Assembly (NCBI GenBank): GCA_963974055.1
Contig: CAXBCP010000009.1
Coordinates: forward strand, 74,006-138,005
Length of the DNA stretch: 64,000 nucleotides
Direction: 5' to 3'
DNA from: an uncultured Rhodospirillaceae bacterium
GTDB taxonomy: Bacteria > Pseudomonadota > Alphaproteobacteria > MPNO01 > UBA830
Positions 5,292 to 22,511 of this stretch are shown here, piece by piece. The position numbers and the translations under genes were made by a program. The stretch's first letter is position 1; the number at the start of each line of letters is the position of its first letter. The notes under the pieces were generated by a model. The model did no database searches. It saw only the letters and a program-made list of their open reading frames with translations, and was not told the DNA's origin.

Positions 5292-6455
5292 TCAGATATA
5301 ATATTCGTTGAGCGGCGGAAAGCCGTTGAAACCGATCGACGCATAGGTCGACGTATAGGCGCCCGTGCTGAGCAGTTCGATCTTGTCGCCGCTGTCGAGC
5401 GCGAGCGGCAGCTGGTATTCGGTCTTCTTGTACAGAACGTCCACTTCGTCGCAGGTCGGGCCGGCCAGAACGACGGGCCCGACCGGGCCGCCGTCATGGG
5501 CGGTGGTAATACGGTACTGGATCGCTTCCTCGTATGTTTCGGGGAGACCGCCGAATTTTCCGACATCCAGGAACACCCAGCGCCGGTCCGGCTCCCGGGA
5601 TTTTTCGGCGACCAGTACGACTTCCGACTGGATGATGCCGGCATCCCCGGCAATGCTCCGTCCGGGCTCGGCAATAATGCGCGGCGGGCGGTTGCCGAAA
5701 TGCTTGACGATCGAGGCGCGGATGATTTCGCCGTAATTCTCGACCGGCTCGATATCCTGCAGATACCGGGCGGGGAAGCCGCCGCCCATATTCATCAGTT
5801 CCAGCTCGACGCCGCGGGCGCCGAGCGCGGAAAACACGAAGGCGGCGCGCTCGATGGCGACGTCCCACTGACCGAGGTTGCGCTGCTGCGAGCCGACATG
5901 AAACGACACACCGGCGGGGACCAGCCCGTCCTCGGCGGCCTGGCACAGCAATTCGATAGCCAGATCGGGCTCGCACCCGAATTTCCGCGATAACGGCCAG
6001 TCCGACCCGGCGCCGTCCATGAATATCCGGCAGAACACCCTGGCGCCGGGAGCATTCGCCGCCAGTTTTGCAAGTTCGGCGCGGCTGTCGAAAGCGAACA
6101 GGTCGATCCCGTATTCATGGGCCTTCGCGATATCCCGGGCCTTCTTGATCGTATTGCCATAGGCGATGCGGTCCGGCGACGCGCCGATATCCAGGCAGGT
6201 TTCGATTTCATAGATGCTCGCGGTATCGAAAAACGATCCCATCGGCAGCAGAGTCGTCAGGACTTCTTTTGCCGGATTCGCCTTCACGGCGTAGAAAATA
6301 TCCGCTTGGGGCAAAACCCGCTGAAGGTCCCGGTAATTGTCGGCAATAACGTCGAGATCGACCACGAGACAGGGCGTCTCGGGCCGGCGTTCTTCCAGGA
6401 ATTTGCGAATTTTCTCTGTCATGGCGCGGGGGTTGTAATCCCCTCTTACCGGCAA
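5292..6455 (-). CDS. ornithine/lysine decarboxylase, PLP-dependent fold-type III (Orn/DAP/Arg decarboxylase family 2)
   Basis: 387 aa. It carries the PLP lysine region (FYAVKAN), a glycine-rich GGGF motif and a conserved C-terminal beta-sandwich region. Confidence 0.75.
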   Translation of the reverse strand: MPVRGDYNPRAMTEKIRKFLEERRPETPCLVVDLDVIADNYRDLQRVLPQADIFYAVKANPAKEVLTTLLPMGSFFDTASIYEIETCLDIGASPDRIAYGNTIKKARDIAKAHEYGIDLFAFDSRAELAKLAANAPGARVFCRIFMDGAGSDWPLSRKFGCEPDLAIELLCQAAEDGLVPAGVSFHVGSQQRNLGQWDVAIERAAFVFSALGARGVELELMNMGGGFPARYLQDIEPVENYGEIIRASIVKHFGNRPPRIIAEPGRSIAGDAGIIQSEVVLVAEKSREPDRRWVFLDVGKFGGLPETYEEAIQYRITTAHDGGPVGPVVLAGPTCDEVDVLYKKTEYQLPLALDSGDKIELLSTGAYTSTYASIGFNGFPPLNEYYI

Positions 6456-12612: not shown

Positions 12613-13776
12613 ATGCCCGACGGCGGCGACGCGGTCACCGTAAAGGTCATATCCTCGCTCGACGAAGTCGCGGAGGCGCACTGGGATGCCTGCGCCGGGG
12701 ACGAGAACCCCTTCGTCTCGCACCGCTTTCTCAAGACGCTCGAGGATTCCGACGCCGCCACCGGCGAGGCCGGCTGGCTGCCCCAGCATATCGTCATCGA
12801 GGACGAGAACGGCATTGCCGGCTGCGCGCCGTGCTACCTGAAGAACCACTCCCACGGCGAATACGTCTTCGACTGGGGCTGGGCCGACGCCTATGAGCGC
12901 GCCGGCGGCCAGTACTATCCGAAGCTCCAGGTCTCGGTGCCGTTCTCGCCGGTCACCGGGCCGCGCCTGCTGGTCCGCGGTGGCGACGACAAGCCGCATA
13001 CCCGGCGCCTGCTGGCGGCCGGGCTGCTGGAACTGGCCAAGCAGCACAAGGTCTCGTCGCTCCACATCACCTTCCCGCTGGAAGAGGAATGGACCGAGCT
13101 CGGCGAGATGGGGCTGATCCAGCGCCAGGGCCAGCAGTTCCACTGGCAGAATAACGGCTATGGGACCTTCGACGATTTCCTCGACACCCTGAATTCGCGC
13201 AAGCGCAAGATGATCCGCAAGGAACGCGCCGCCGCCAATGCCGAGGTCGATATCCAGGTGCTGACGGGCGATGCCATAAAGCCCAAGCACATGCAGGCCT
13301 TCTATCATTTCTATATCAACACCGTGGACCGCAAATGGGCCCACGCCTATCTCAACTACGAGTTCTTCCAGCTGCTGCGCGAGCGCATGGCCGACAACGT
13401 GGTGCTGGTGATCGCCAGCCATGACGGCGACTACGTCGCCGGCGCCCTGAACCTGCGCGGCCCGAACACGCTGTGGGGCCGCAACTGGGGCTGCACGGAA
13501 CGCTTCCGCATGCTCTATTTCGAGACCTGCTTCTACCGCGGCATCGAGTTCGCGATTGAGAACGGCCTGTCCAGGGTCGAGGCCGGCGCCCAGGGGCCGC
13601 ACAAGATCAGCCGCGGCTACCTGCCGTCGCCGACCTACAGCGCCCACTGGATCCGCGACGAGGGCTTCCGCACCGCGGTCGCCGATTTCTGCGACCGCGA
13701 GCGCCGCGGCATCGAACACGAAATGGACTCCCTCAGCGACCTGTCTCCCTTCAAACGCGCGAATGAATCGCCTTAG
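12613..13776 (+). CDS. GNAT-fold N-acyltransferase family protein (PF04339/DUF482-like, FemAB-related)
   Basis: It starts at MPDGGDAVTV, inside listed ORF 12352..13776. Its start overlaps the stop of the preceding gene. Confidence 0.6.
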   Translation: MPDGGDAVTVKVISSLDEVAEAHWDACAGDENPFVSHRFLKTLEDSDAATGEAGWLPQHIVIEDENGIAGCAPCYLKNHSHGEYVFDWGWADAYERAGGQYYPKLQVSVPFSPVTGPRLLVRGGDDKPHTRRLLAAGLLELAKQHKVSSLHITFPLEEEWTELGEMGLIQRQGQQFHWQNNGYGTFDDFLDTLNSRKRKMIRKERAAANAEVDIQVLTGDAIKPKHMQAFYHFYINTVDRKWAHAYLNYEFFQLLRERMADNVVLVIASHDGDYVAGALNLRGPNTLWGRNWGCTERFRMLYFETCFYRGIEFAIENGLSRVEAGAQGPHKISRGYLPSPTYSAHWIRDEGFRTAVADFCDRERRGIEHEMDSLSDLSPFKRANESP

Positions 13777-13883
13777 CCCCCCTCCCTGGCCCTCCCCCCG
13801 CAAGCGGGGAGAGGGGATTACACATTCGTCCGTCTCGCACACCCTGTCCCCTCTCCCTTTAGGGGGAGGGTCAGGGAGGGGGT
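13777..13883. repeat. nested palindromic intergenic element (REP/MITE-like)
   Basis: The outer arms cccccctccctggccctcccccc (13777-13799) and gggggagggtcagggaggggg (13863-13883) are reverse complements with 1 mismatch. Inner arms ggggagagggg and cccctctccc are also inverted, and there is a ccccgcAAgcgggg hairpin just after the stop codon. Confidence 0.6.
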
Positions 13884-13947
13884 TCTCAGCGAGCGATTAT
13901 TCTGCGACGAATAAGGTTCGTTTTTCCGCTCCAAACCGGGTTTTCCC

Positions 13948-14781
13948 ATGACTGACTTCGAAGACATCCCCTATCGCACGATCGACGGCCACACGCTGGA
14001 GGCGCGGCTCTACCGGCCCGCCGGCAGCGGCCCCGACATTAGCCCCGACAGCGGCCCGGCGCGCTGGGTCGTGGACGTTCACGGCGGCGCCTGGGGCTCC
14101 GGCGACAGGCTCAACAACCAGGTCATCCACGAAGACCTCGCAGCCCACGGTATCGGCGTCTTCGCGCTCGATTTCCGCCTGTCGGACACGGCGCAGTATC
14201 CGGCTATGGTCGACGACGTCAGCTACGGCATCCGCTGGTTCAAGGCCAATGCCGCTGCCCTCGGCGTGAATGCCGCGACCATCGGCGGGCTCGGCTCGTC
14301 GAGCGGCGCGCAGCAACTGGGGCTGGTCGCGCTGTGTCCCGCCAACCCGCGCTGGACGACGCCGGATGCCGCCCTCGGCGACGCCGATGCGAGCATCGAT
14401 TTCTTCGTCGCCGGCTGGCCGATCCTCGATCCGCTGGCGCGCTACCGCATGGTGCGCGACGCCGGCAACGAGCGCCTGGTCGCCGCCCACGATGCCTGTT
14501 TCGCGACCGAGGCCGACATGGCGGAGGGCAACCCCTGCGCGCTGCTCGACCGCGGCGAGGCCACCCACCTGCCGCCAATGATCGTCATCCAGGGCACGGC
14601 GGACGCCAATGTCGAACACACCTGGCAGGACCGCTTCGCCGATCTCTACCGCGCCAAGGGCGGCACGGTGGAGATGCACAAATACGACGGCCAGCCCCAC
14701 ACCTTCGTGACCGCCGACCCGACCTCGGCGGCATCCCTGGATGCGATTGTGAAGATCCGGGAATTCGTCCTCGCGGTCTGA
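13948..14781 (+). CDS. alpha/beta hydrolase (esterase/lipase-type)
   Basis: 277 aa with an HGGAW oxyanion motif and the nucleophile elbow GLGSSSG. Confidence 0.65.
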   Translation: MTDFEDIPYRTIDGHTLEARLYRPAGSGPDISPDSGPARWVVDVHGGAWGSGDRLNNQVIHEDLAAHGIGVFALDFRLSDTAQYPAMVDDVSYGIRWFKANAAALGVNAATIGGLGSSSGAQQLGLVALCPANPRWTTPDAALGDADASIDFFVAGWPILDPLARYRMVRDAGNERLVAAHDACFATEADMAEGNPCALLDRGEATHLPPMIVIQGTADANVEHTWQDRFADLYRAKGGTVEMHKYDGQPHTFVTADPTSAASLDAIVKIREFVLAV

Positions 14782-14829
14782 TCTTCTGTCGGCGCCGGGG
14801 GAATCGCTTCCCCGGCCCGCCACCAAACC

Positions 14830-15085
14830 AAAACCCGTAAAACAACCCCATGCACCCGAAGGGAAGGGATGGCATTGACGGGAGATCCCCGCCGCCGCGG
14901 GGATGACCACCGCCCCGGCCCGCCGGTCCGGTGCCGCGAAACGCAAACCCGCAATTCAACCCCATGCACCCGAAGGGAAGGGACGGCAGTGGCGGGCCGC
15001 GTCCCTGCCCGGGCGGGACCGCCGCCCCGGCCCGCCGCAAATCGCAAACCCGCAATTCAACCCCATACACCCGAAGCTCCGGAAT
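14830..15085. repeat. tandem direct repeat, unit of about 105-115 bp in roughly 2.3 copies
   Basis: The unit runs aaacccgcaattcaaccccatgcacccgaagggaaggga...gccccggcccgcc...cgcaaacccgcaattc. It appears from about 14830, about 14944 and about 15045 (the last copy partial), and each unit contains an internal GC hairpin. Confidence 0.7.
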
Positions 15086-15584
15086 ACCCTTCACGGAAAA
15101 CGGAACCCCGCCGCACGGAACCCTTTCGCCAACCGGCCGCGCCGACTGACGCCGGGATATCGCCCGGAAGCCGCCGGGATGCCGGCGCGATGCCGCCCGA
15201 ATTGCGATTAATTATCTGTCGTAGCGCCTCTCCCCTGTCGTGATCGTCCGGCCTGCCGATACCGGAACGCAACCCGACAGGGAGTGTAACACAAAAAGAA
15301 CAAATAACGAACATATATGACTGAGCTGATTCAGCTTGAAATTTATCAGGATTGAAAGATCAGCGCCCAACCGGCCACCGCCTCTCTAACTAGGTTGTCG
15401 ACCTTCCAATCAGATTCCACTCATAAACGGGGGAATGACGGGGACAAGGTCAAAAACAATGCCACCACCGAGTTTCTCATCAACGGAGTTCAACTAGAAA
15501 AATCGATCAAACGGGTTAGAGCCAAGTTAAAATTTTTGATCAGCTGACAATTTTAATAGCCCTTCCTAAACTAGGTCACTCGCG

Positions 15585-15599
15585 ACCAACTTAAAGTTG
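15585..15599. promoter_or_regulatory. perfect palindrome ccaacttaaagttgg in the AT-rich leader about 70 bp upstream of the NLR-like gene (candidate operator)
   Basis: ccaactt / aagttgg are inverted. Upstream direct motifs ctaactaggt (15386-15395) and ctaaactaggt (15567-15577) are also present. Confidence 0.3.
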
Positions 15600-15671
15600 G
15601 CTGTTCCGTATCTTGCAATCACAAGAACAATCATTCAACTTTGTGGAGAAAATTCACTTTAGGCGAAGAAC

Positions 15672-18557
15672 ATGCCCCTCGTTGAAACATTGGTTTTATC
15701 TCTTGGAGCATCTTTATCAAAGGCTGCCATAAAACTCTGGATGTCAGATTCCGGATTAGCAATCGACGCATCTTCTGCTTTAGTCGACACGTTCAAAAAG
15801 CATCTGCCTGATGAACTTTCTAGGCGAAGGGCCAATCGACTTTACGAACAGATTGCTGAACAAACGGCGGAAAAAATTGAGCCACTATTTCGACAAGAAT
15901 TCGGTCGGCTCGAAGATGATCGCAAAGAACGCGTCGCCCTAGCTGTTGCAAAGACAATCGATGACGCTGGTGCTTCGGCTGAAATTCTCGCTCAGTTGGA
16001 TTTCGACCCGGTAAAACTCGAGACATACTTTAACAAGTTCAATTCGACTGCAGAATTTTCGCTTACGGCAACGCAATCCGTTTTCTACGAACGAATTCTC
16101 AGAGAATCTTGTTTCTACATTATCGAGATTGCTAACAATTTGCCGACGTTAAAAACGGCAATAGCGTCAGAAATTCTTAAACGCCAAACCGAAATACTAG
16201 AGAAAATCGAAAAGATTCTAAAAAATATACCGGAGAGTATATTTGACTCATCAAAAGACAGTGACGTCGAAGGCTTCGAGAACTTATATCGACGGACGAT
16301 TTCATCGAAGTTAGATGAAATCGAGCTACACGGATTGAGCTTACGGTCAGTGAACCCACGATACAGTTTATCTGTCGCATACATCAGCCTCATGATGTCC
16401 CTCGGGGGGAAACTTGCTCAAAATGAAGAGACCATCAACCGCGTACCCGTCGGAAAAGCATTCGCGGGAGGGAAACGATTCCTAATTTTTGGAGAGCCCG
16501 GTTCCGGGAAGACAACTCTGTTAAAATGGATTGCAGTTCAGACAGCAAAATTGAATTTTGAAAACGAACTCGCTGAATGGAATAACTGTTTTCCATTTTT
16601 CGTCCGATTACGCCGTTATTCTGTAGGTGAATTTCCAGTTGGCGCAAAATTAGTAACGCATTTGGCGCCGACATTGGAAGGTCATCTACCCCATCAGTGG
16701 GTAGAAAAAAAATTAAATTCCGGACAAGCAATTCTGTTAGTCGACGGCCTTGATGAACTACCAGAAAACAAAAGGAATTCGGCAAGGAAATGGCTTAAGG
16801 AACTGGCCGAAGTTTACGCAAACGCGACAATAATTGTCACATCTCGCCCGCCCGCTGTACCGCGCACCTGGCTAGACTCTGTAAATTTCGATGTGCGGGA
16901 AATTCAACCAATGAACTCGCACGAGATCACAACGTTCATTAATTATTGGCACACTGCCGAAAAGGAAGCAATTAATGATCCAGTCATTGTAGAAAGGATC
17001 GATCGAGCCGGAAAGACGTTGAAGAACGAAATTTCCAATAATGACGAACTGCGAAATTTGTGCACTACGCCATTATTAGGCGCAATGATATGCGCGCTCT
17101 ATTTGGAAAGAAAGGAGCACCTACCGGCAGATAGGTTGGACCTTTACTCTATGACACTCGATTCAATCTTAGAGGGGCGAGATAACGAAAGAGACATCCC
17201 TCAAATTTACGAATTTGATCTGACTAAGCGGGAAAAAGAGTACCTGCTTATGAGCATCGCACAATGGTTTCTTCTGAATGGAAAAGTCGATGCCTCTATC
17301 AACGACGTCAAACTCCACCTTGAATCTGTAGCTTCTCGTTTTGGAGATGGTGATCTAACGGCAGACCAACTCCTAAACTTCCTATTAGAACGAAGTGGCG
17401 TTCTTCGCACGCCAGCCGTTGGAAGCTTAGATTTCATTCACAAGACATTTCAAGAGTATCTTGGAGCAAAAGCTATTGTCACCGACAACAATATTGGATT
17501 GTTAGTCCTATCTGCGCACGTCCCCGAATGGCGTGAAGTCGTGGTTCTCGCGGCAGGCCTCTCCAACAACCCACAATTAACCGAACTAATTGATGGGATA
17601 TTAGATCGATCTGAAAAATCATCAGATATCGAAAGTAATATTTTAAAAATTGTGGCTGTAGCCTGCAAAGGTACCGTAGCAATATGGCCTCCCGGGGTAG
17701 CAGATCGACTAGACACCGTTTTTGCCGAGCTCTTCCCGCCTCGTGATATATGGGCTGCAAGAAGCATTGCAAAAGCCGGCCCACAGGCACTCGACTACCT
17801 ATCAGGCTACCAAGACGAAGAAGACGCTATTGCCGCAGCTTGTATCCATGCAATCATCTCAATTGGCGGGAAAAAAGCACTCGAAACCCTAGAAGCATAC
17901 GGGTCCAATTCTGGAGCGCTTGCCGCTACAGAACTATTGCAAGGTTGGGACTATTTTGACCAGCTCCAGTACGCAAAGTTAATATTGAAAAAAAACAACG
18001 CCCGTTTTGGAATAAACTGGAATGACAGAAATAATTTGGAAGGAATTCAATATTTAAAGAATCTGCATTCTTTTGAACTATCCGATTCATGGAAGATTCG
18101 AAGTATCAATAATCTAAAGAACGCCAAAAAACTAAAACACTTAGTACTAAAGAATTGCAACTCGCTCGATTCAATATCAGCCCTTAAAAATCTTTCCGAA
18201 TTAAGACACCTGACCATCGAGAATTCACCTGACATCAAATCCATCAAAGCAATAGAATCTCTGATCCACCTAAAAGAATTATACTTAGATGGCTGCTCTA
18301 GAATATCAAATTTATTACCAATATCAAATTTAACTCAATTACAAATCCTGCACCTAAACGGTCTATATAATCTCACCGATCTTGATTTTATCAGTAAACT
18401 CAAAAGCCTCGAACAACTAGATTTAACAGGTTGCTATGGAATAACAGATTTAATACCGTTAGCCCGACTCCCCAATCTCACAACCGTCTATCTCCCAGAA
18501 TTAAATTACGACCAAAATTTGCCGAGTGAATTTATTGAACGGGTAGAAATTTTATAG
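15672..18557 (+). CDS. NLR-like STAND NTPase with an unknown helical N-terminal domain, NACHT, HEAT-like repeats and C-terminal leucine-rich repeats
   Basis: 961 aa. The NACHT domain shows Walker A GEPGSGKTTLLKWIA (aa 275-289), Walker B AILLVDGLDELP (aa 353-364), sensor-1 IIVTSRP and the NLR-type winged-helix motif DFIHKTFQEYLGAKAI. HEAT/PBS-like repeats span roughly aa 690-750. Eight or more LRRs follow (LKNLHSFELSDS..., LKHLVLKNCNSLDSISALKNLSELRHLTI..., LKELYLDGCSRISNL...). The N-terminal ~265 aa are all-helical with no recognisable motif. The gene is low-GC. Confidence 0.8.
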   Translation: MPLVETLVLSLGASLSKAAIKLWMSDSGLAIDASSALVDTFKKHLPDELSRRRANRLYEQIAEQTAEKIEPLFRQEFGRLEDDRKERVALAVAKTIDDAGASAEILAQLDFDPVKLETYFNKFNSTAEFSLTATQSVFYERILRESCFYIIEIANNLPTLKTAIASEILKRQTEILEKIEKILKNIPESIFDSSKDSDVEGFENLYRRTISSKLDEIELHGLSLRSVNPRYSLSVAYISLMMSLGGKLAQNEETINRVPVGKAFAGGKRFLIFGEPGSGKTTLLKWIAVQTAKLNFENELAEWNNCFPFFVRLRRYSVGEFPVGAKLVTHLAPTLEGHLPHQWVEKKLNSGQAILLVDGLDELPENKRNSARKWLKELAEVYANATIIVTSRPPAVPRTWLDSVNFDVREIQPMNSHEITTFINYWHTAEKEAINDPVIVERIDRAGKTLKNEISNNDELRNLCTTPLLGAMICALYLERKEHLPADRLDLYSMTLDSILEGRDNERDIPQIYEFDLTKREKEYLLMSIAQWFLLNGKVDASINDVKLHLESVASRFGDGDLTADQLLNFLLERSGVLRTPAVGSLDFIHKTFQEYLGAKAIVTDNNIGLLVLSAHVPEWREVVVLAAGLSNNPQLTELIDGILDRSEKSSDIESNILKIVAVACKGTVAIWPPGVADRLDTVFAELFPPRDIWAARSIAKAGPQALDYLSGYQDEEDAIAAACIHAIISIGGKKALETLEAYGSNSGALAATELLQGWDYFDQLQYAKLILKKNNARFGINWNDRNNLEGIQYLKNLHSFELSDSWKIRSINNLKNAKKLKHLVLKNCNSLDSISALKNLSELRHLTIENSPDIKSIKAIESLIHLKELYLDGCSRISNLLPISNLTQLQILHLNGLYNLTDLDFISKLKSLEQLDLTGCYGITDLIPLARLPNLTTVYLPELNYDQNLPSEFIERVEIL

Positions 18558-18595
18558 TTTGCGGATATTAATTCATCACATAATGCTTCCAGAGC

Positions 18596-18632
18596 GCGAA
18601 AAAAGGGCTTAGCGAAAACCGACTAAGCCCTT
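18596..18632 (+). terminator. rho-independent terminator of the NLR-like gene
   Basis: Hairpin gggcttag-N10-ctaagccc followed by ttgcaattgttgg. Confidence 0.5.
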
Positions 18633-18768
18633 GCAATTGTTGGTTGCGGGGGCACGATTTAAACCTGCGGCCTTCAGGTTATGAGCGTGATTGTCAATAA
18701 TCCTGCGCAATCCCATAAACTTCCAAAAAAAAACGACCATGAAAATCCGGGTATCCGCGCCGGGATAC

Positions 18769-18849
18769 CCCCCACAAAAAAACCCGGCACAGGGCCGGGT
18801 TTCTTTTCGTCGGGAACGAGCGGAGGGTTATTCCACGAATTCCTCGACC
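18769..18849. repeat. direct repeat A: partial duplicate of the clpA 3' end plus its terminator
   Basis: 81 bp, nearly identical to 19710-19790 with 4 mismatches confined to the spacer between stop codon and hairpin. It includes the aaacccggcacagggccgggttt hairpin and the last about 21 nt of the clpA reading frame, but here it is not attached to any gene. Confidence 0.8.
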
Positions 18850-18943
18850 TTGACGGGACATCGATCTGGCGCGCCGGCTCTGTAAGTTCGTCTTTCAGAA
18901 CCTCGCCGGGATGAGCTAGCTGTTTCAACAGCTGCGCCGTGCC

Positions 18944-19255
18944 TCAAACCGGGTCCGGAACGAACGGCTTCACATCGACCTGATCGGCCTTATCGCGCAT
19001 GGTTGATGCGTCATACCAGGCCTGCATACGCAGCAGCGTATCCATGGACAGACCGAAGGCCTTTTCGAGCCGCAGGGCCATTTCCGGCGTCAGGCCCGCT
19101 TTCTCGTTCAGCAGGTCCGACACCGTTGCGCGGCGCACCCCGAGAATCCCGGCCGCGCGGCTGATGCTCAACCCCAGTTCTTCAATCACTTCTTCGCGGA
19201 TGAATTCACCCGGATGGCCGGGCTTCATCCCGACTTTGATTCCCTCGTTTTCCAT
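18944..19255 (-). CDS. higA: HigA family antitoxin (XRE-type HTH)
   Basis: The start at MENEGIKVGMKPGHPGEFIREEV is internal to listed ORF 18944..19345. It has an HTH (LSISRAAGILGVRRATVSDLLNEKAGLTPEMALRL). Its ATG overlaps the higB stop (TGATG). Confidence 0.8.
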   Translation of the reverse strand: MENEGIKVGMKPGHPGEFIREEVIEELGLSISRAAGILGVRRATVSDLLNEKAGLTPEMALRLEKAFGLSMDTLLRMQAWYDASTMRDKADQVDVKPFVPDPV

Positions 19256-19539
19256 CAGTGGTAATCCTCCAAATTCAGATGCTCCACGCTCACGCCATCG
19301 ATCTCGAAGGTGATGCGCCAATTGCCCGATGCACTGATGCTCCACGTCCCTGCCCGGTCGCCCGTCAGCTGATGAATGCGCCAGCCGGGGGGACCTTCTA
19401 CGCCCGCCATATTCTCGGCGGCGATCAGGGCTGTCAGAATTCGCCGCACCCGCCCGACCAGATCGCGACTGATTTCGCGGTCGTCATCATCTTCGATGAG
19501 GCGCCTTAGCCCCCTGTGGTCAATCGAACCAATCTGCAC
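19255..19539 (-). CDS. higB: HigB toxin (RelE/ParE superfamily, 'plasmid maintenance system killer')
   Basis: 94 aa with ...RLHQLTGDRAGTWSISASGNWRITFEIDG...EHLNLEDYH, typical of HigB. The toxin-first gene order matches higBA. Confidence 0.8.
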   Translation of the reverse strand: MQIGSIDHRGLRRLIEDDDDREISRDLVGRVRRILTALIAAENMAGVEGPPGWRIHQLTGDRAGTWSISASGNWRITFEIDGVSVEHLNLEDYH

Positions 19540-19709
19540 ATTTCAATGTGTACGGTTATACCGTACATACGTCAAGTCATCTCCTGATTTTTTCGATGGA
19601 GGTTCCATCGCCATGGCCACTGCAACCCGGCGAATGCGGGGCAGTCACGGTAGAGGAGAACCGACAGCAGACACACAAAGGCGGCCTGGCGTCCGGGCAC
19701 AGCCGAACG

Positions 19710-19790
19710 CCCCCACAAAAAAACCCGGCACAGGGCCGGGTTTCTTTTCGTCGGGTACGGGCGGCGGGTTATTCCACGAATTCCTCGACC
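19710..19790. repeat. direct repeat B: the authentic clpA 3' end (last codons and stop) plus the bidirectional terminator hairpin
   Basis: This is the partner of 18769-18849. The hairpin cccggc-acagg-gccggg is flanked by an A-run and a T-run. Confidence 0.8.
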
Positions 19791-22120
19791 CTGTCGCCGT
19801 CGCCGTCGGGGCCGTCGTCGTCGTCATCCGTGTCCGGATCCTTCGACTTGCCTTTCGGCGGCGCCGCGAGGGTGACGAGGGTGAGGGTGTCGTCGGCCTT
19901 TTTGACGTCGACCTGGACCACGCCGCCCTTGGCGAGCTTGCCGAACAGGATCTCGTCGGCCAGCGGCTTCTTGAGATGTTCCTGGATGACCCGCGACAGC
20001 GGCCGCGCGCCGTAGGCGATGTCGTAGCCCTTGCGGCACAGCCAGTCGCGGGCCGCGTCGGTCAGCTCGAAGGTCACGTTGCGGTCTTCGAGCTGGGCTT
20101 CGAGCTGCATGATGAACTTGTCGACGACCAGCAGCACCACTTCCTGCGGCAGGCTGGCGAACGGGATGATCGAATCCAGCCGGTTGCGGAATTCCGGGGT
20201 GAACATGCGCTTGATCGCCTCCTCGTCCTCGCCCGTGCGTTCGGCGCGTTCGAACCCGATGGCCGGCTTGGCCATCTCGGCGGCGCCCGCATTGGTGGTC
20301 ATGATCAGGATCACGTTGCGGAAATCGACGCTCTTGCCGTTATGGTCGGTCAGCCTGCCGTGATCCATGATCTGCAGCAGGATGTTGAACACGTCCGGAT
20401 GGGCCTTTTCGATCTCGTCGAGCAGCAGCACCGAATGGGGATGCTGGTCGACCGCGTCGGTCAGCAGGCCGCCCTGGTCGAAGCCGACATAGCCCGGCGG
20501 CGCGCCGATCAGGCGGGACACCGAATGGCGTTCCATGTATTCCGACATGTCGAACCGCGTCAGCTCGACGCCGAGCGTGTGGGCGAGCTGGCGCGCGACC
20601 TCGGTCTTGCCGACGCCGGTCGGGCCGGAGAACAGGTAGCTGCCGATCGGCTTGTCGGGTTCGCGCAGGCCGGCACGCGCCAGCTTGATCGCCGATGCCA
20701 GGGCGTCGATGGCGCTGTCCTGGCCGAACACCACGCGTTTCAGGTCGGCATCCAGCGTCTGCATCGATTCCTTGTCGGAACGCGACACGCTTTTCGGGGG
20801 GATGCGCGCGATCTTGGCGACCACGGCCTCGACGTCCTTGACCGTGATCAGCTTCTTGCGCCGGCTTTCCGGCACCAGCATCTGGGCGGCGCCGACTTCG
20901 TCGATCACGTCGATCGCCTTGTCGGGCAGCTTGCGGTCGTTGATGTACTTGGCGGCCAGTTCCACGGCCGTGCGCAGCGCGGCGGCGGTGTAGCGCACCC
21001 GGTGATGCTTTTCGTAATAGGGTTTCAGCCCGCGCAGGATTTTCACCGTGTCCTCGACGCTCGGCTCCGGCACGTCGATCTTCTGGAACCGGCGTACCAG
21101 CGCGCGGTCCTTTTCGAAATACGACCGGTATTCCTTGTAGGTGGTCGAGCCGATGCATTTCAGCGTGCCGCCCTGGAGGGCCGGTTTCAGCAGGTTGGAC
21201 GCATCCATCGAGCCGCCGCTGGTCGCGCCGGCGCCGATGACGGTGTGGATTTCGTCGATGAACAGGACCGCGTCGTCATGCTGTTCGAGCTCGGACACGA
21301 CCGCTTTCAGGCGTTCCTCGAAATCGCCGCGATAGCGGGTCCCGGCGAGCAGCGCGCCCATGTCGAGCGAGAAGATGGTCGCGCCCTTGAGCACCTCCGG
21401 CACGTCGCCGTCGTGAATGCGCTTGGCCAGCCCTTCGGCGATGGCGGTCTTGCCGACGCCGGAATCGCCGACATAGAGCGGGTTGTTCTTGGTGCGGCGG
21501 CACAGCACCTGGATGGTGCGCTCGATCTCGGCGTCGCGGCCGATCAGCGGATCGATTTTGCCGTCGGCGGCTTTCTGGTTGAGATTGACGCAATAGGTGT
21601 CGAGCGCCTCGCCGGCGCTCTTGCCGTCCTCCTCGTCGCCCCCTTCTTCGTCGGTGCCGCGGACCGAGCGGTTTTCCGACCGGCCGGGGACCTTGGCGAT
21701 GCCGTGGCTGATATAGTTCACGGCGTCGAAACGGGACATGTCCTGTTCCTGGAGATAGTACACCGCGTGGCTTTCGCGCTCGGAGAACATGGCCACCAGC
21801 ACGTTCGCGCCGGTGACTTCCTGGCGCCCGGAGGACTGGACGTGAATGGCCGCCCGCTGCACGACGCGCTGGAAGCTCGCGGTCGGTTTCGGGTCTTCCT
21901 CGTCCTCGACCACCAGGTTGGACAGGTCCTCGTCGAGATAGCCTTTCAGGTCGTCCGAAAGCTTCTCGATATCGACGCCGCAGGCCTTGAGCACGGCGAT
22001 CGCGTCCTGGTCCTCGGTCAATGCCATCAGCAGATGTTCGAGCGTGGCATATTCGTGGTGACGGTCGTTCGCCTGCGACAAGGCGCGGTGCAGGCTTTTT
22101 TCAAGATTGCGTGAAAGCAT
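19769..22120 (-). CDS. clpA: ATP-dependent Clp protease ATP-binding subunit ClpA
   Basis: The start at [14 protein letters not shown] is internal to listed ORF 19769..22174. It has two AAA+ modules ([15 protein letters not shown] and [15 protein letters not shown]). Confidence 0.9.
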
Positions 22121-22124
22121 TCGG

Positions 22125-22511
22125 TCAGGCCTTTTCCAGTGTACATTGCAGCGGGTGCTGGTGCTGCTTGGCAAGGTCCATCACTTGCTGGACCTTGGTT
22201 TCCGCAACTTCGTAGGTAAAGACGCCGCAGACGCCGACGCCTTTCTGATGGACGTGCAGCATGATCTGCGTCGCCTCGTCCTGGGTTTTGCTGAAATAGC
22301 GTTCCAGCACCAGGATGACAAATTCCATCGGGGTATAGTCATCGTTGAGCATGATGACCTTGTACATCGCGGGTTTCTTGCTTTTGGGCTTGGTGCGGGT
22401 AACGACGCCGGTTTCCGAACCGCCGTTGCCGCCGCCGCCGTCTTCGTCGCCGCCCTTGCCGGGGATATCGTCGCCGTCACCGGCCATGCCGGGGGCCGTG
22501 TTGCGGGCCAT
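22125..22511 (-). CDS. clpS: ATP-dependent Clp protease adaptor ClpS with a Gly/Asp-rich N-terminal extension
   Basis: The core is [24 protein letters not shown]. The start is assigned at MARNTAPG (cat at 22509-22511), and the alternative upstream Met MMSRFAHI is possible. Confidence 0.8.

Follow-up and report, generated by a model that had tools for sequence, protein, structure and literature searches.

Among the described sensors of the STAND type (signal transduction ATPases with numerous domains), Avs1-5 are single-gene, tripartite proteins which bind phage proteins and so lead to abortive infection (PMC13581612). Closer to the gene studied here are the bacterial NACHT (bNACHT) proteins surveyed by Kibby et al. 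(bioRxiv 10.1101/2022.07.19.500537). In that survey the N-terminal domain NNH1 was named, and Table S1 lists a Vibrio campbellii protein (WP_005534681, bNACHT16) with the organization NNH1+NACHT+Imm-LRR in clade 4, where variants also occur that carry an enzyme (calcineurin-like or PNP_UDP) ahead of a short NNH1 fragment and then the NACHT domain. When the bNACHT16 histidine equivalent to H443 is changed to L or P, or T584 (the S445 equivalent) to P, the arabinose-induced alleles inhibit growth of E. coli, which was read as hyperactivation (Kibby et al.).

The subject of this study is a gene of the same layout in a 64-kb stretch of DNA (in the following the window) from an uncultured Rhodospirillaceae bacterium. 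[quoted passage not shown] The survey that named the NNH1 domain reportedly appeared in Cell later. We read the gene, with a probability of roughly 0.6, as an NLR of the catalogued clade 4 type which entered the genome horizontally as a one-gene cassette, at a variable spot between clpA and a FemAB-like gene of a marine, Rhodospirillales-like alphaproteobacterium, and which serves as an abortive-infection sensor.

Domain organization and structural model

The open reading frame (ORF) and its domains were delimited with Pfam, homologue alignments, an AlphaFold2 (AF2) model and Foldseek:

15672-18557, plus strand: NLR-related gene, 961 aa, NNH1 - NACHT - alpha-solenoid - leucine-rich repeats (ORF, Pfam, AF2 model, Foldseek)
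15672-16256, plus strand: NNH1 domain, aa 1-195, all-helical (PF22733, E=1.2e-36 on this segment; models)
16257-16439, plus strand: pre-NACHT segment, aa 196-256, with the motif FExxYRRxVxxKLDxLELxG...RYxLSVAYISL (homologue alignment)
16440-16961, plus strand: NACHT nucleotide-binding domain, aa 257-430 (Pfam NACHT at aa 271-429; motifs; invariant columns)
16962-17486, plus strand: helical domain 1 and winged-helix domain, aa 431-605 (blocks collinear with human NLRC4)
17487-17996, plus strand: alpha-solenoid spacer, HEAT-like, aa 606-775 (about 11 helices, confidence score pLDDT about 90 in the AF2 model)
17997-18542, plus strand: leucine-rich repeat (LRR) sensor, aa 776-957, internalin-like (LRR_4, other LRR families, repeat register)

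The NACHT core is complete. Kibby et al. define a NACHT domain by a Walker A motif GxxGxGK[ST] and a Walker B motif with the signature D[GAS]hDE. In our protein Walker A reads GEPGSGKTT (G274-T282, with K280) and Walker B reads LLVDGLDE from aa 355, with D358-G-L-D-E362 as the NACHT signature; both are invariant across 41 homologues. Sensor-1 is T390-S-R392, with TSRP beginning at aa 390, and the region of aa 431-605 holds LRNLCTTPLL as well as F588-I-H590-K-T592-F-Q-E-Y-L (FIHKTFQEYLGAKA from aa 588), in which H590 and T592 are nearly invariant among the homologues of the family. Every motif that the sequence-only reading had reported for the core (Walker A, Walker B, TSR and the winged-helix motif) could thus be located in the 961-aa ORF, and the Pfam profile PF05729 matches aa 271-429 with E=6.5e-18 (65.6 bits, cutoff 26.7).

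The same reading described the N-terminal domain as all-helical and without a recognisable motif. The helical character is borne out by both structural models, but the domain is classified: the whole protein matches PF22733 (NNH1) over aa 9-183 with E=2.9e-35 (122 bits, cutoff 27). Between this domain and the NACHT core lies a segment with several invariant or nearly invariant residues (F202, Y206, D215, G221, L233, S234, A236, Y237 and L240). As to the HEAT-like repeats behind the winged-helix domain, the profile HEAT_2 stays below its threshold (E=0.013, 16.2 bits, cutoff 27.7), while the model does contain an alpha-solenoid of about 11 helices. The C-terminal part matches LRR_4 (E=3.4e-12) and several other Pfam LRR families over aa ~790-943. 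Instead of the at least eight repeats assumed before, we count seven regular 23-residue LRRs (aa 797-957), in perfect register both in the sequence and in the model and preceded by a cap strand. These repeats resemble internalins (E=2e-17 to chains of the PDB) and XopL most closely.

The AF2 model, built from 41 homologues, has a pLDDT of 83.4 and a pTM of 0.80. It shows, in this order, an all-helical N-terminal region, an alpha/beta nucleotide-binding domain (NBD), helical and winged-helix domains, the alpha-solenoid of about 11 helices and a regular LRR. When the whole model is compared with the PDB by Foldseek, NLRC4 is the top match (E=3e-19); NLRP3 and NOD2 come next (E-values up to 1e-15; about 870-990 aligned columns), and these three outrank the plant resistosomes. 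By sequence alone NLRC4 is not significant (phmmer, E=0.33). Three blocks are nevertheless collinear between the two proteins, namely Walker A, LRNLCTTPLL/LRNLMKTPLF and LDFIHKTFQEYL/YKFFHKSFQEYT. In the last of these FIHKTFQEYL matches FFHKSFQEY of NLRC4, and therefore H590 corresponds to His443 and T592 to Ser445 of NLRC4.

With the animal NLRs the protein shares the order NBD, helical domain 1, winged-helix domain, helical spacer and LRR, as well as the winged-helix motif FxHK[ST]FQEY. It differs from them at both ends. The N-terminus is NNH1 and not CARD or PYD, and the LRRs are of the 23-residue, internalin-like bacterial type, whereas those of animal NLRs are of the 28-29-residue ribonuclease-inhibitor type. 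Taken together, the Pfam matches to NNH1, NACHT and LRR and the NLRC4 match bear out the earlier proposal that the protein belongs to the NACHT clade of STAND NTPases, is NLR-like and consists of three parts.

Relation to bNACHT16 and breadth of the family

A search of 5.8 billion proteins returned the identical protein from marine metagenomes; the next best sequences reach 35% identity by BLASTP and up to 36% in a multiple alignment, so that bNACHT16 is as close to our protein as any other database sequence. BLASTP against the first 399 residues of bNACHT16 (Table S2) gives 33% identity over aa 1-401, end to end (E=1e-66). Both proteins show the same three parts, nearly equal length (950 and 961 aa), the same Walker A and B motifs and the same H-x-T winged-helix motif, and each is encoded by a solitary gene. 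One is from Vibrio, the other from an alphaproteobacterium, and only about one third of the residues are identical. With the offset of this alignment (residue 401 = residue 393 of bNACHT16) H590 matches H582 and T592 matches T584 of bNACHT16, an equivalence which rests on the offset of the N-terminal alignment together with the alignment of the NLRC4 motif.

Membership in clade 4 is suggested by the architecture and by the best match. On these sequence criteria the protein is a divergent addition to an already catalogued type and not a new kind. The undescribed subtype that had been suspected does not hold up, as NNH1+NACHT+Imm-LRR is entered under clade 4 in Table S1 of Kibby et al., and bNACHT16 has been cloned and tested.

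The family around the two proteins is large. A word-indexed search for homologues of the N-terminal domain returned one protein only; an exhaustive HMMER search with this domain found 1,219 clusters (50% identity) at E<=1e-3, 796 of them at E<=1e-10. None of these N-domain relatives exceeds 40% identity to our protein, and no database protein exceeds 36% over the full length. In the best 150 of the 1,219 clusters the NNH1 match nearly always begins at residue 1, and the proteins are ~950-1,250 aa long. Among 38 full-length homologues the mean pairwise identity is highest in the NBD (0.45) and lowest in the LRR (0.21). The region from the LRR start to the C-terminus is also the most length-variable part (107-472 aa); with 186 aa and seven repeats our protein lies below the family median of 303 aa. 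This profile would be expected for a stable switch combined with a fast-evolving sensor.

A horizontally acquired one-gene cassette

The gene is embedded in DNA of foreign composition, with its own putative expression signals:

15250-18750, no strand: low-GC block of about 3.5 kb, the sole such block in the 64-kb window, with one gene inside
15544-15572, plus strand: sigma-70-like promoter candidate, CTGACA-17-TAAACT (9/12 in a consensus scan; pattern match only)
18605-18630, plus strand: terminator-like hairpin GGGCTTAG-10 nt-CTAAGCCC, then TTGCAATTGTT, past the NLR stop (read from the sequence)

In a 500-nt sliding window the GC content is 0.35-0.48 across ~15250-18750 and 0.60-0.71 in both flanks; neither a fine GC profile nor a scan of the whole window revealed a second low-GC block. 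The ORF itself has a GC content of 0.427 (window 0.622), and no further ORF with a family match was found in the block, in agreement with the earlier description of the gene as sole cargo of an island of ~3.5 kb. The candidate promoter lies ~100 nt 5' of the start codon, and the hairpin was missed by the terminator scanner, probably owing to a loop of more than 8 nt. The GC content at third codon positions (GC3) is 0.40 for the NLR ORF, 0.70 and 0.66 for the neighbouring higB and higA, 0.87 for clpA and 0.885 for an alpha/beta hydrolase gene. Because NLR gene, higBA and host thus show three distinct compositions, they point to separate acquisitions.

We compared 80 alphaproteobacterial clpA loci, of which the best clpA, from a metagenome-assembled genome of the Rhodospirillales, is 78% identical. 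In half of them (40/80) a FemAB-like gene stands convergently downstream of clpA, at a distance of -7 to 6247 bp; in the window this gap is ~6 kb. Neither the NLR gene nor HigB nor the hydrolase was found in any of the 80 loci. The NLR gene is therefore accessory and sits at a spot which varies between lineages, whereas it had been considered beforehand that close relatives might hold it as a syntenic core gene. We conclude that it is a solitary gene that was horizontally acquired as a one-gene cassette.

Contigs from several marine metagenomes (Tara, ENA) carry exactly the same protein, always in this arrangement. A search for an empty site by means of the left-flank gene listed a single contig, which ends directly past that gene.

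Genomic contexts of homologues

Six homologues with 30-35% identity were studied in their genomic surroundings. All are solitary genes and have no neighbour in common. One is adjoined by McrBC, AbiEi, a transposase and RepL, a second lies near a STAND gene with TCAD9, NB-ARC and tetratricopeptide repeat (TPR) domains, a third is adjoined by conjugation genes, and one is flanked by ApeA and a PIN toxin of a toxin-antitoxin (TA) system. Relatives, at least at the level of NACHT-LRR, were also found on plasmids; there are 77 of these, the majority of them from Streptomyces and cyanobacteria, and 34 are mobilizable or conjugative. Phages yielded nothing comparable to these plasmid-borne relatives.

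In two records of ~15 kb annotated as Vibrio cyclitrophicus 'phage PE003' (PQ189336.1 and PQ189349.1) a hypothetical protein is 25% identical over aa 268-602 (E=2e-13). This similarity is at the level of the NACHT domain, and the records suggest that small phage-like elements carry NACHT proteins.

Proposed role in abortive infection

At rest the protein would be an autoinhibited, nucleotide-bound monomer, in which His590 of the winged-helix domain probably touches the nucleotide, as is the case for His443 of NLRC4. The fast-evolving LRR horseshoe would bind a foreign protein, which most probably derives from a phage; this would release the autoinhibition and allow an NTP-dependent oligomerisation of the NACHT modules. 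The N-terminal NNH1 domains, clustered in this way, would then arrest growth or bring about cell death before the invader has finished its cycle. We infer the phage origin of the trigger, the oligomerisation and the part of NNH1 as killing module. Autoinhibition and toxic output are backed indirectly by bNACHT16; ligand capture and oligomerisation would follow from the fold and by comparison with other bNACHTs, such as bNACHT11, which forms a heptamer upon binding of phage proteins (bioRxiv 10.1101/2024.12.17.629029, 10.1101/2024.11.07.622273).

The growth inhibition by the bNACHT16 mutants indicates that a protein with the NNH1+NACHT+LRR architecture can be toxic to a heterologous host. This toxicity of hyperactive bNACHT16, together with the fact that four of the six homologues lie near defence or mobile genes, makes abortive infection the most likely role. 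The sequence-only reading had put forward a single-gene antiphage or abortive-infection system, and abortive infection is the reading that we prefer.

Several observations weigh against such a role. The 'Phage Defense' entry of bNACHT16 is empty in Table S2 of Kibby et al., where other bNACHTs of the same screen have phages listed. Since this screen (T2-T7, lambda, M13, MS2 and Qbeta; Kibby et al.) challenged a Vibrio protein with E. coli phages, we regard it as weak evidence against a defence function. Two of the six homologues have purely housekeeping surroundings. Around our own gene there is likewise no defence gene besides higBA within ~10 kb on either side, the rest being housekeeping, and to call this a classic defence-island context was an overstatement. 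The copies at hand also give no basis for judging selection, as three contigs share the ORF without a single nucleotide difference and a fourth (2.4x coverage) deviates by one residue. Finally, no curated defence model of PADLOC or NCBIfam recognises the protein. The best PADLOC model, PDC-S60, reaches 30.6 bits on the NTPase only, the NCBIfam models DS8_antiphage and EruA reach 30.6 of 790 and 25 of 1000 bits, and none of the Avs models of PADLOC matches at E<=0.1. Avs1-5 differ from our protein in having a TPR-like sensor and nuclease, SIR2 or protease effectors, where ours has an LRR and none of those effector domains. The main text of a STAND survey of 2026 (PMC13581612) mentions neither NNH1 nor LRR.

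NNH1 as a possible effector domain

NNH1 would be the output module, judging from its start at residue 1, its conserved N-terminal motif, its most hydrophobic helix 1 and the lack of a match to any enzyme family. Helix 1 (aa 2-23) begins at the free N-terminus and is centred on Gly12. Its mean Kyte-Doolittle value of 1.08 exceeds that of every other helix in the domain (-1.28 to 0.82); this hydrophobicity lies under that of transmembrane helices, which is a point against a membrane-directed output. Among 169 representatives the N-terminal motif is M[AP]L[LI]ETLxLx[LV]G(84%)xA[VI]AK(75%)xxLKxW(93%)LKD(72%), which corresponds to G12 in 84%, K17 in 75% and W23 in 93% of the sequences. No catalytic-type motif was found in the domain, and a permissive Pfam scan returned NNH1 itself and one match at chance level.

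A similar pattern is known from Bell, Hell, Babybell and the clade-14 bNACHTs (bNACHT01/02/11), which have an N-terminal motif and a hydrophobic helix centred on a glycine, and whose clustering leads to a plasmolysis-like death (bioRxiv 10.1101/2024.12.17.629029, 10.1101/2024.11.07.622273). In Bab the exchange G11K abolishes function (same references). NNH1 may be comparable to these MEPIS/MDPIT-type systems in this respect, as its free N-terminus carries a conserved motif and a glycine (G12, 84%; G11 in Bab) lies at the centre of its hydrophobic helix 1. The consensus start of NNH1 is M[AP]L[LI]E and not MEPIS or MDPIT, with a minority beginning MEPIS, MEPIA or MDP. We also considered NNH1 as a member of the MEPIS/MDPIT-type death domains (Bell, Hell, HeLo, clade-14) and rejected this, as tests for homology by profile and by structure were negative; hhalign of NNH1 against the N-termini of the clade-14 bNACHTs gave a probability of 0.4%. 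The likeness is to be seen as a functional analogy, and not as membership.

From this analogy we tentatively derive a more specific model, which we consider possible rather than probable. NNH1, a helical bundle of ~195 residues, would be a cell-death executioner that keeps its conserved, Gly-centred amphipathic N-terminal helix sheathed; NACHT oligomerisation would free and cluster this helix, which then disrupts the membrane or the osmotic homeostasis. The fold of such an executioner may be unrelated in sequence or structure to the HeLo, Bell, coiled-coil (CC) and MLKL domains. If the model were true, NNH1-NACHT-LRR proteins, a family of more than 1,200 clusters whose sensor is a true LRR, would be the bacterial counterpart of the plant CC-NLR resistosomes.

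Alternative explanations

The protein could be the same conflict-type NLR and yet use NNH1 as an adaptor or regulatory domain, comparable to FISNA or Death-like domains, which recruits or activates a conserved host factor; or the NACHT oligomer could itself be toxic. We think this unlikely, but it has some arguments on its side. NNH1 shows no structural or profile link to known membrane-targeting or enzymatic effectors, Kibby et al. name a non-catalytic 'adaptor' class of N-terminal domains, and the NNH1 fragment placed between enzyme and NACHT in clade 4 implies that at least part of NNH1 can be a linker. Whatever NNH1 recruits would need to be broadly conserved, as the hyperactive Vibrio protein is toxic in E. 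coli, and the six homologue contexts contain no conserved neighbour gene. The extreme N-terminus at residue 1 is moreover the best-conserved part of NNH1, a better fit to an effector with a free N-terminus. A different question is whether the trigger comes from a phage at all. A role in surveillance of plasmids or integrative and conjugative elements, in kin or self/non-self discrimination or in stress-linked cell death would accord with the empty entry of bNACHT16, with the homologue beside conjugation genes and with the plasmid-borne relatives in Streptomyces and cyanobacteria. NACHT paralogues are most numerous in cyanobacteria, the system class has been described in multicellular bacteria, and fungal NACHT proteins mediate allorecognition (Kibby et al.). 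We nevertheless judge a non-phage role as rather improbable. The screen of a Vibrio protein with E. coli phages says little on its cognate phages, antiphage activity is proven for several other bNACHT clades (Kibby et al.), and homologues of our gene adjoin McrBC/AbiEi and ApeA.

Two further possibilities seem very remote to us. The likeness of the LRR to internalins and XopL, the low-GC foreign block and the hydrophobic N-terminal helix might be taken to indicate an exported LRR effector against a eukaryotic host, comparable to internalins, XopL and YopM, with the N-terminal helix as export signal. But this helix lacks a positively charged n-region, has a conserved acidic residue at position 5 and belongs to a folded helical domain found throughout the family. 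A NACHT domain with complete NTPase and winged-helix autoinhibition motif is a cytosolic switch, bNACHT16 acts inside E. coli, and there are no secretion-system genes nearby. That the gene is a functionless passenger, recently transferred and unexpressed or unused in its host, could be argued from the extremely foreign codon usage (GC3 0.40, against 0.87-0.89) and from the identity of all copies, which leaves no sign of purifying selection. Against it speak an intact ORF of 2.9 kb in which all catalytic and regulatory motifs are kept, a promoter-like site and a terminator-like hairpin of its own, and the same allele in several independent marine metagenome assemblies.

Neighbouring genes and repeats

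To the left of the NLR gene lie a YjgF-family gene, the FemAB-like gene and the alpha/beta hydrolase gene, and to the right higA, higB, clpA and clpS. Two features were delimited between the NLR gene and clpA:

18769-18855, no strand: displaced copy of the clpA 3' end with bidirectional terminator, a direct repeat between the NLR gene and higA
18944-19539, minus strand: higB-higA type II toxin-antitoxin pair (Pfam, TIGR02607; GC3 0.66-0.70)

HigB (19255-19539) matches PF05015 with E=2.4e-12, and HigA (18944-19255) matches TIGR02607 with E=3.6e-26 (90.8 bits, cutoff 47.7). As in type II TA pairs, higB stands directly upstream of higA and adjoins it. The direct repeat has a length of 87 nt, with copies of 94% identity at 18769-18855 and 19710-19796, and consists of the last 28 nt of clpA and the bidirectional terminator. 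The two copies bracket higBA alone and not the NLR gene. A TA module and duplicated att-like repeats had been noted beside the island; both are real, but the repeats belong to higBA. A third copy, which tandem integration would lead one to expect where the low-GC block begins on the left, could not be found there (alignment scores 21-25; shuffled sequences, mean 19.3 and maximum 26). An integrase-borne island with att repeats was considered and rejected, as the repeats flank only higBA and no integrase, transposase or tRNA is present. ARAGORN and Rfam detected no tRNA, tmRNA or other Rfam element near the block, and permissive Rfam scans of both flanks gave matches at chance level only. The 87-nt repeats resemble a scar that was left when a higBA cassette entered the 3' end of clpA by site-specific insertion; there is no recombinase gene.

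The interval between clpA and the FemAB-like gene (~13776-19769 of the window) may be a recurrent insertion spot. The closest relative has a filling of 5.2 kb at this place, with host-like GC content. The hydrolase (BD-FAE/Abhydrolase_3, 13948-14781) has a host-like GC3 of 0.885, yet it is missing here in all 80 relatives, and therefore at least three pieces in the gap were acquired separately.

Three tandem GC-rich repeats of ~100-114 nt (14792-15096, core CAACCCCATGCACCCGAAGGGAAGGGA) lie 5' of the low-GC block. We rejected them as att sites, as they form a local tandem array with no further occurrence in the window. At this array metagenome contigs break off or deviate (35 and 6 differences in two of them), so its copy number probably varies. 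An 11-nt tandem repeat (CGCCCGGATGC x4.5, 71% matches, 15150-15199) is located at the left boundary of the low-GC block, on its GC-rich side.

Some mechanically assigned ORF starts are over-extended. HigA is called with 103 aa (18944-19255) and not with 133 aa (18944-19345), and for ClpA (19769-22174, an ORF of 801 aa) Met19 is the most likely start; on a Tara contig that lacks 19 codons, gene calling yields a product of 764 aa. The 19 codons are 57 nt of the clpA of the window (20654-20710, in frame) which are absent from a Tara scaffold (near its position 5633) with 99.96-100% identity in the remainder. They are situated immediately upstream of the D2 Walker A region, and their absence reflects either a deletion variant in the population or an artefact of assembly.

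Significance

The gene represents a clean natural bacterial NLR with real leucine-rich repeats, carried as a one-gene cassette at a core locus in an alphaproteobacterium of marine origin, and its product is very divergent, with at most 40% identity to other database proteins. Its value lies in two questions which are common to ~1,200 clusters, namely the ligand of the LRR and the mode in which NNH1 arrests growth. With its short LRR of seven repeats and its defined native context the protein could become a convenient second test case beside bNACHT16.

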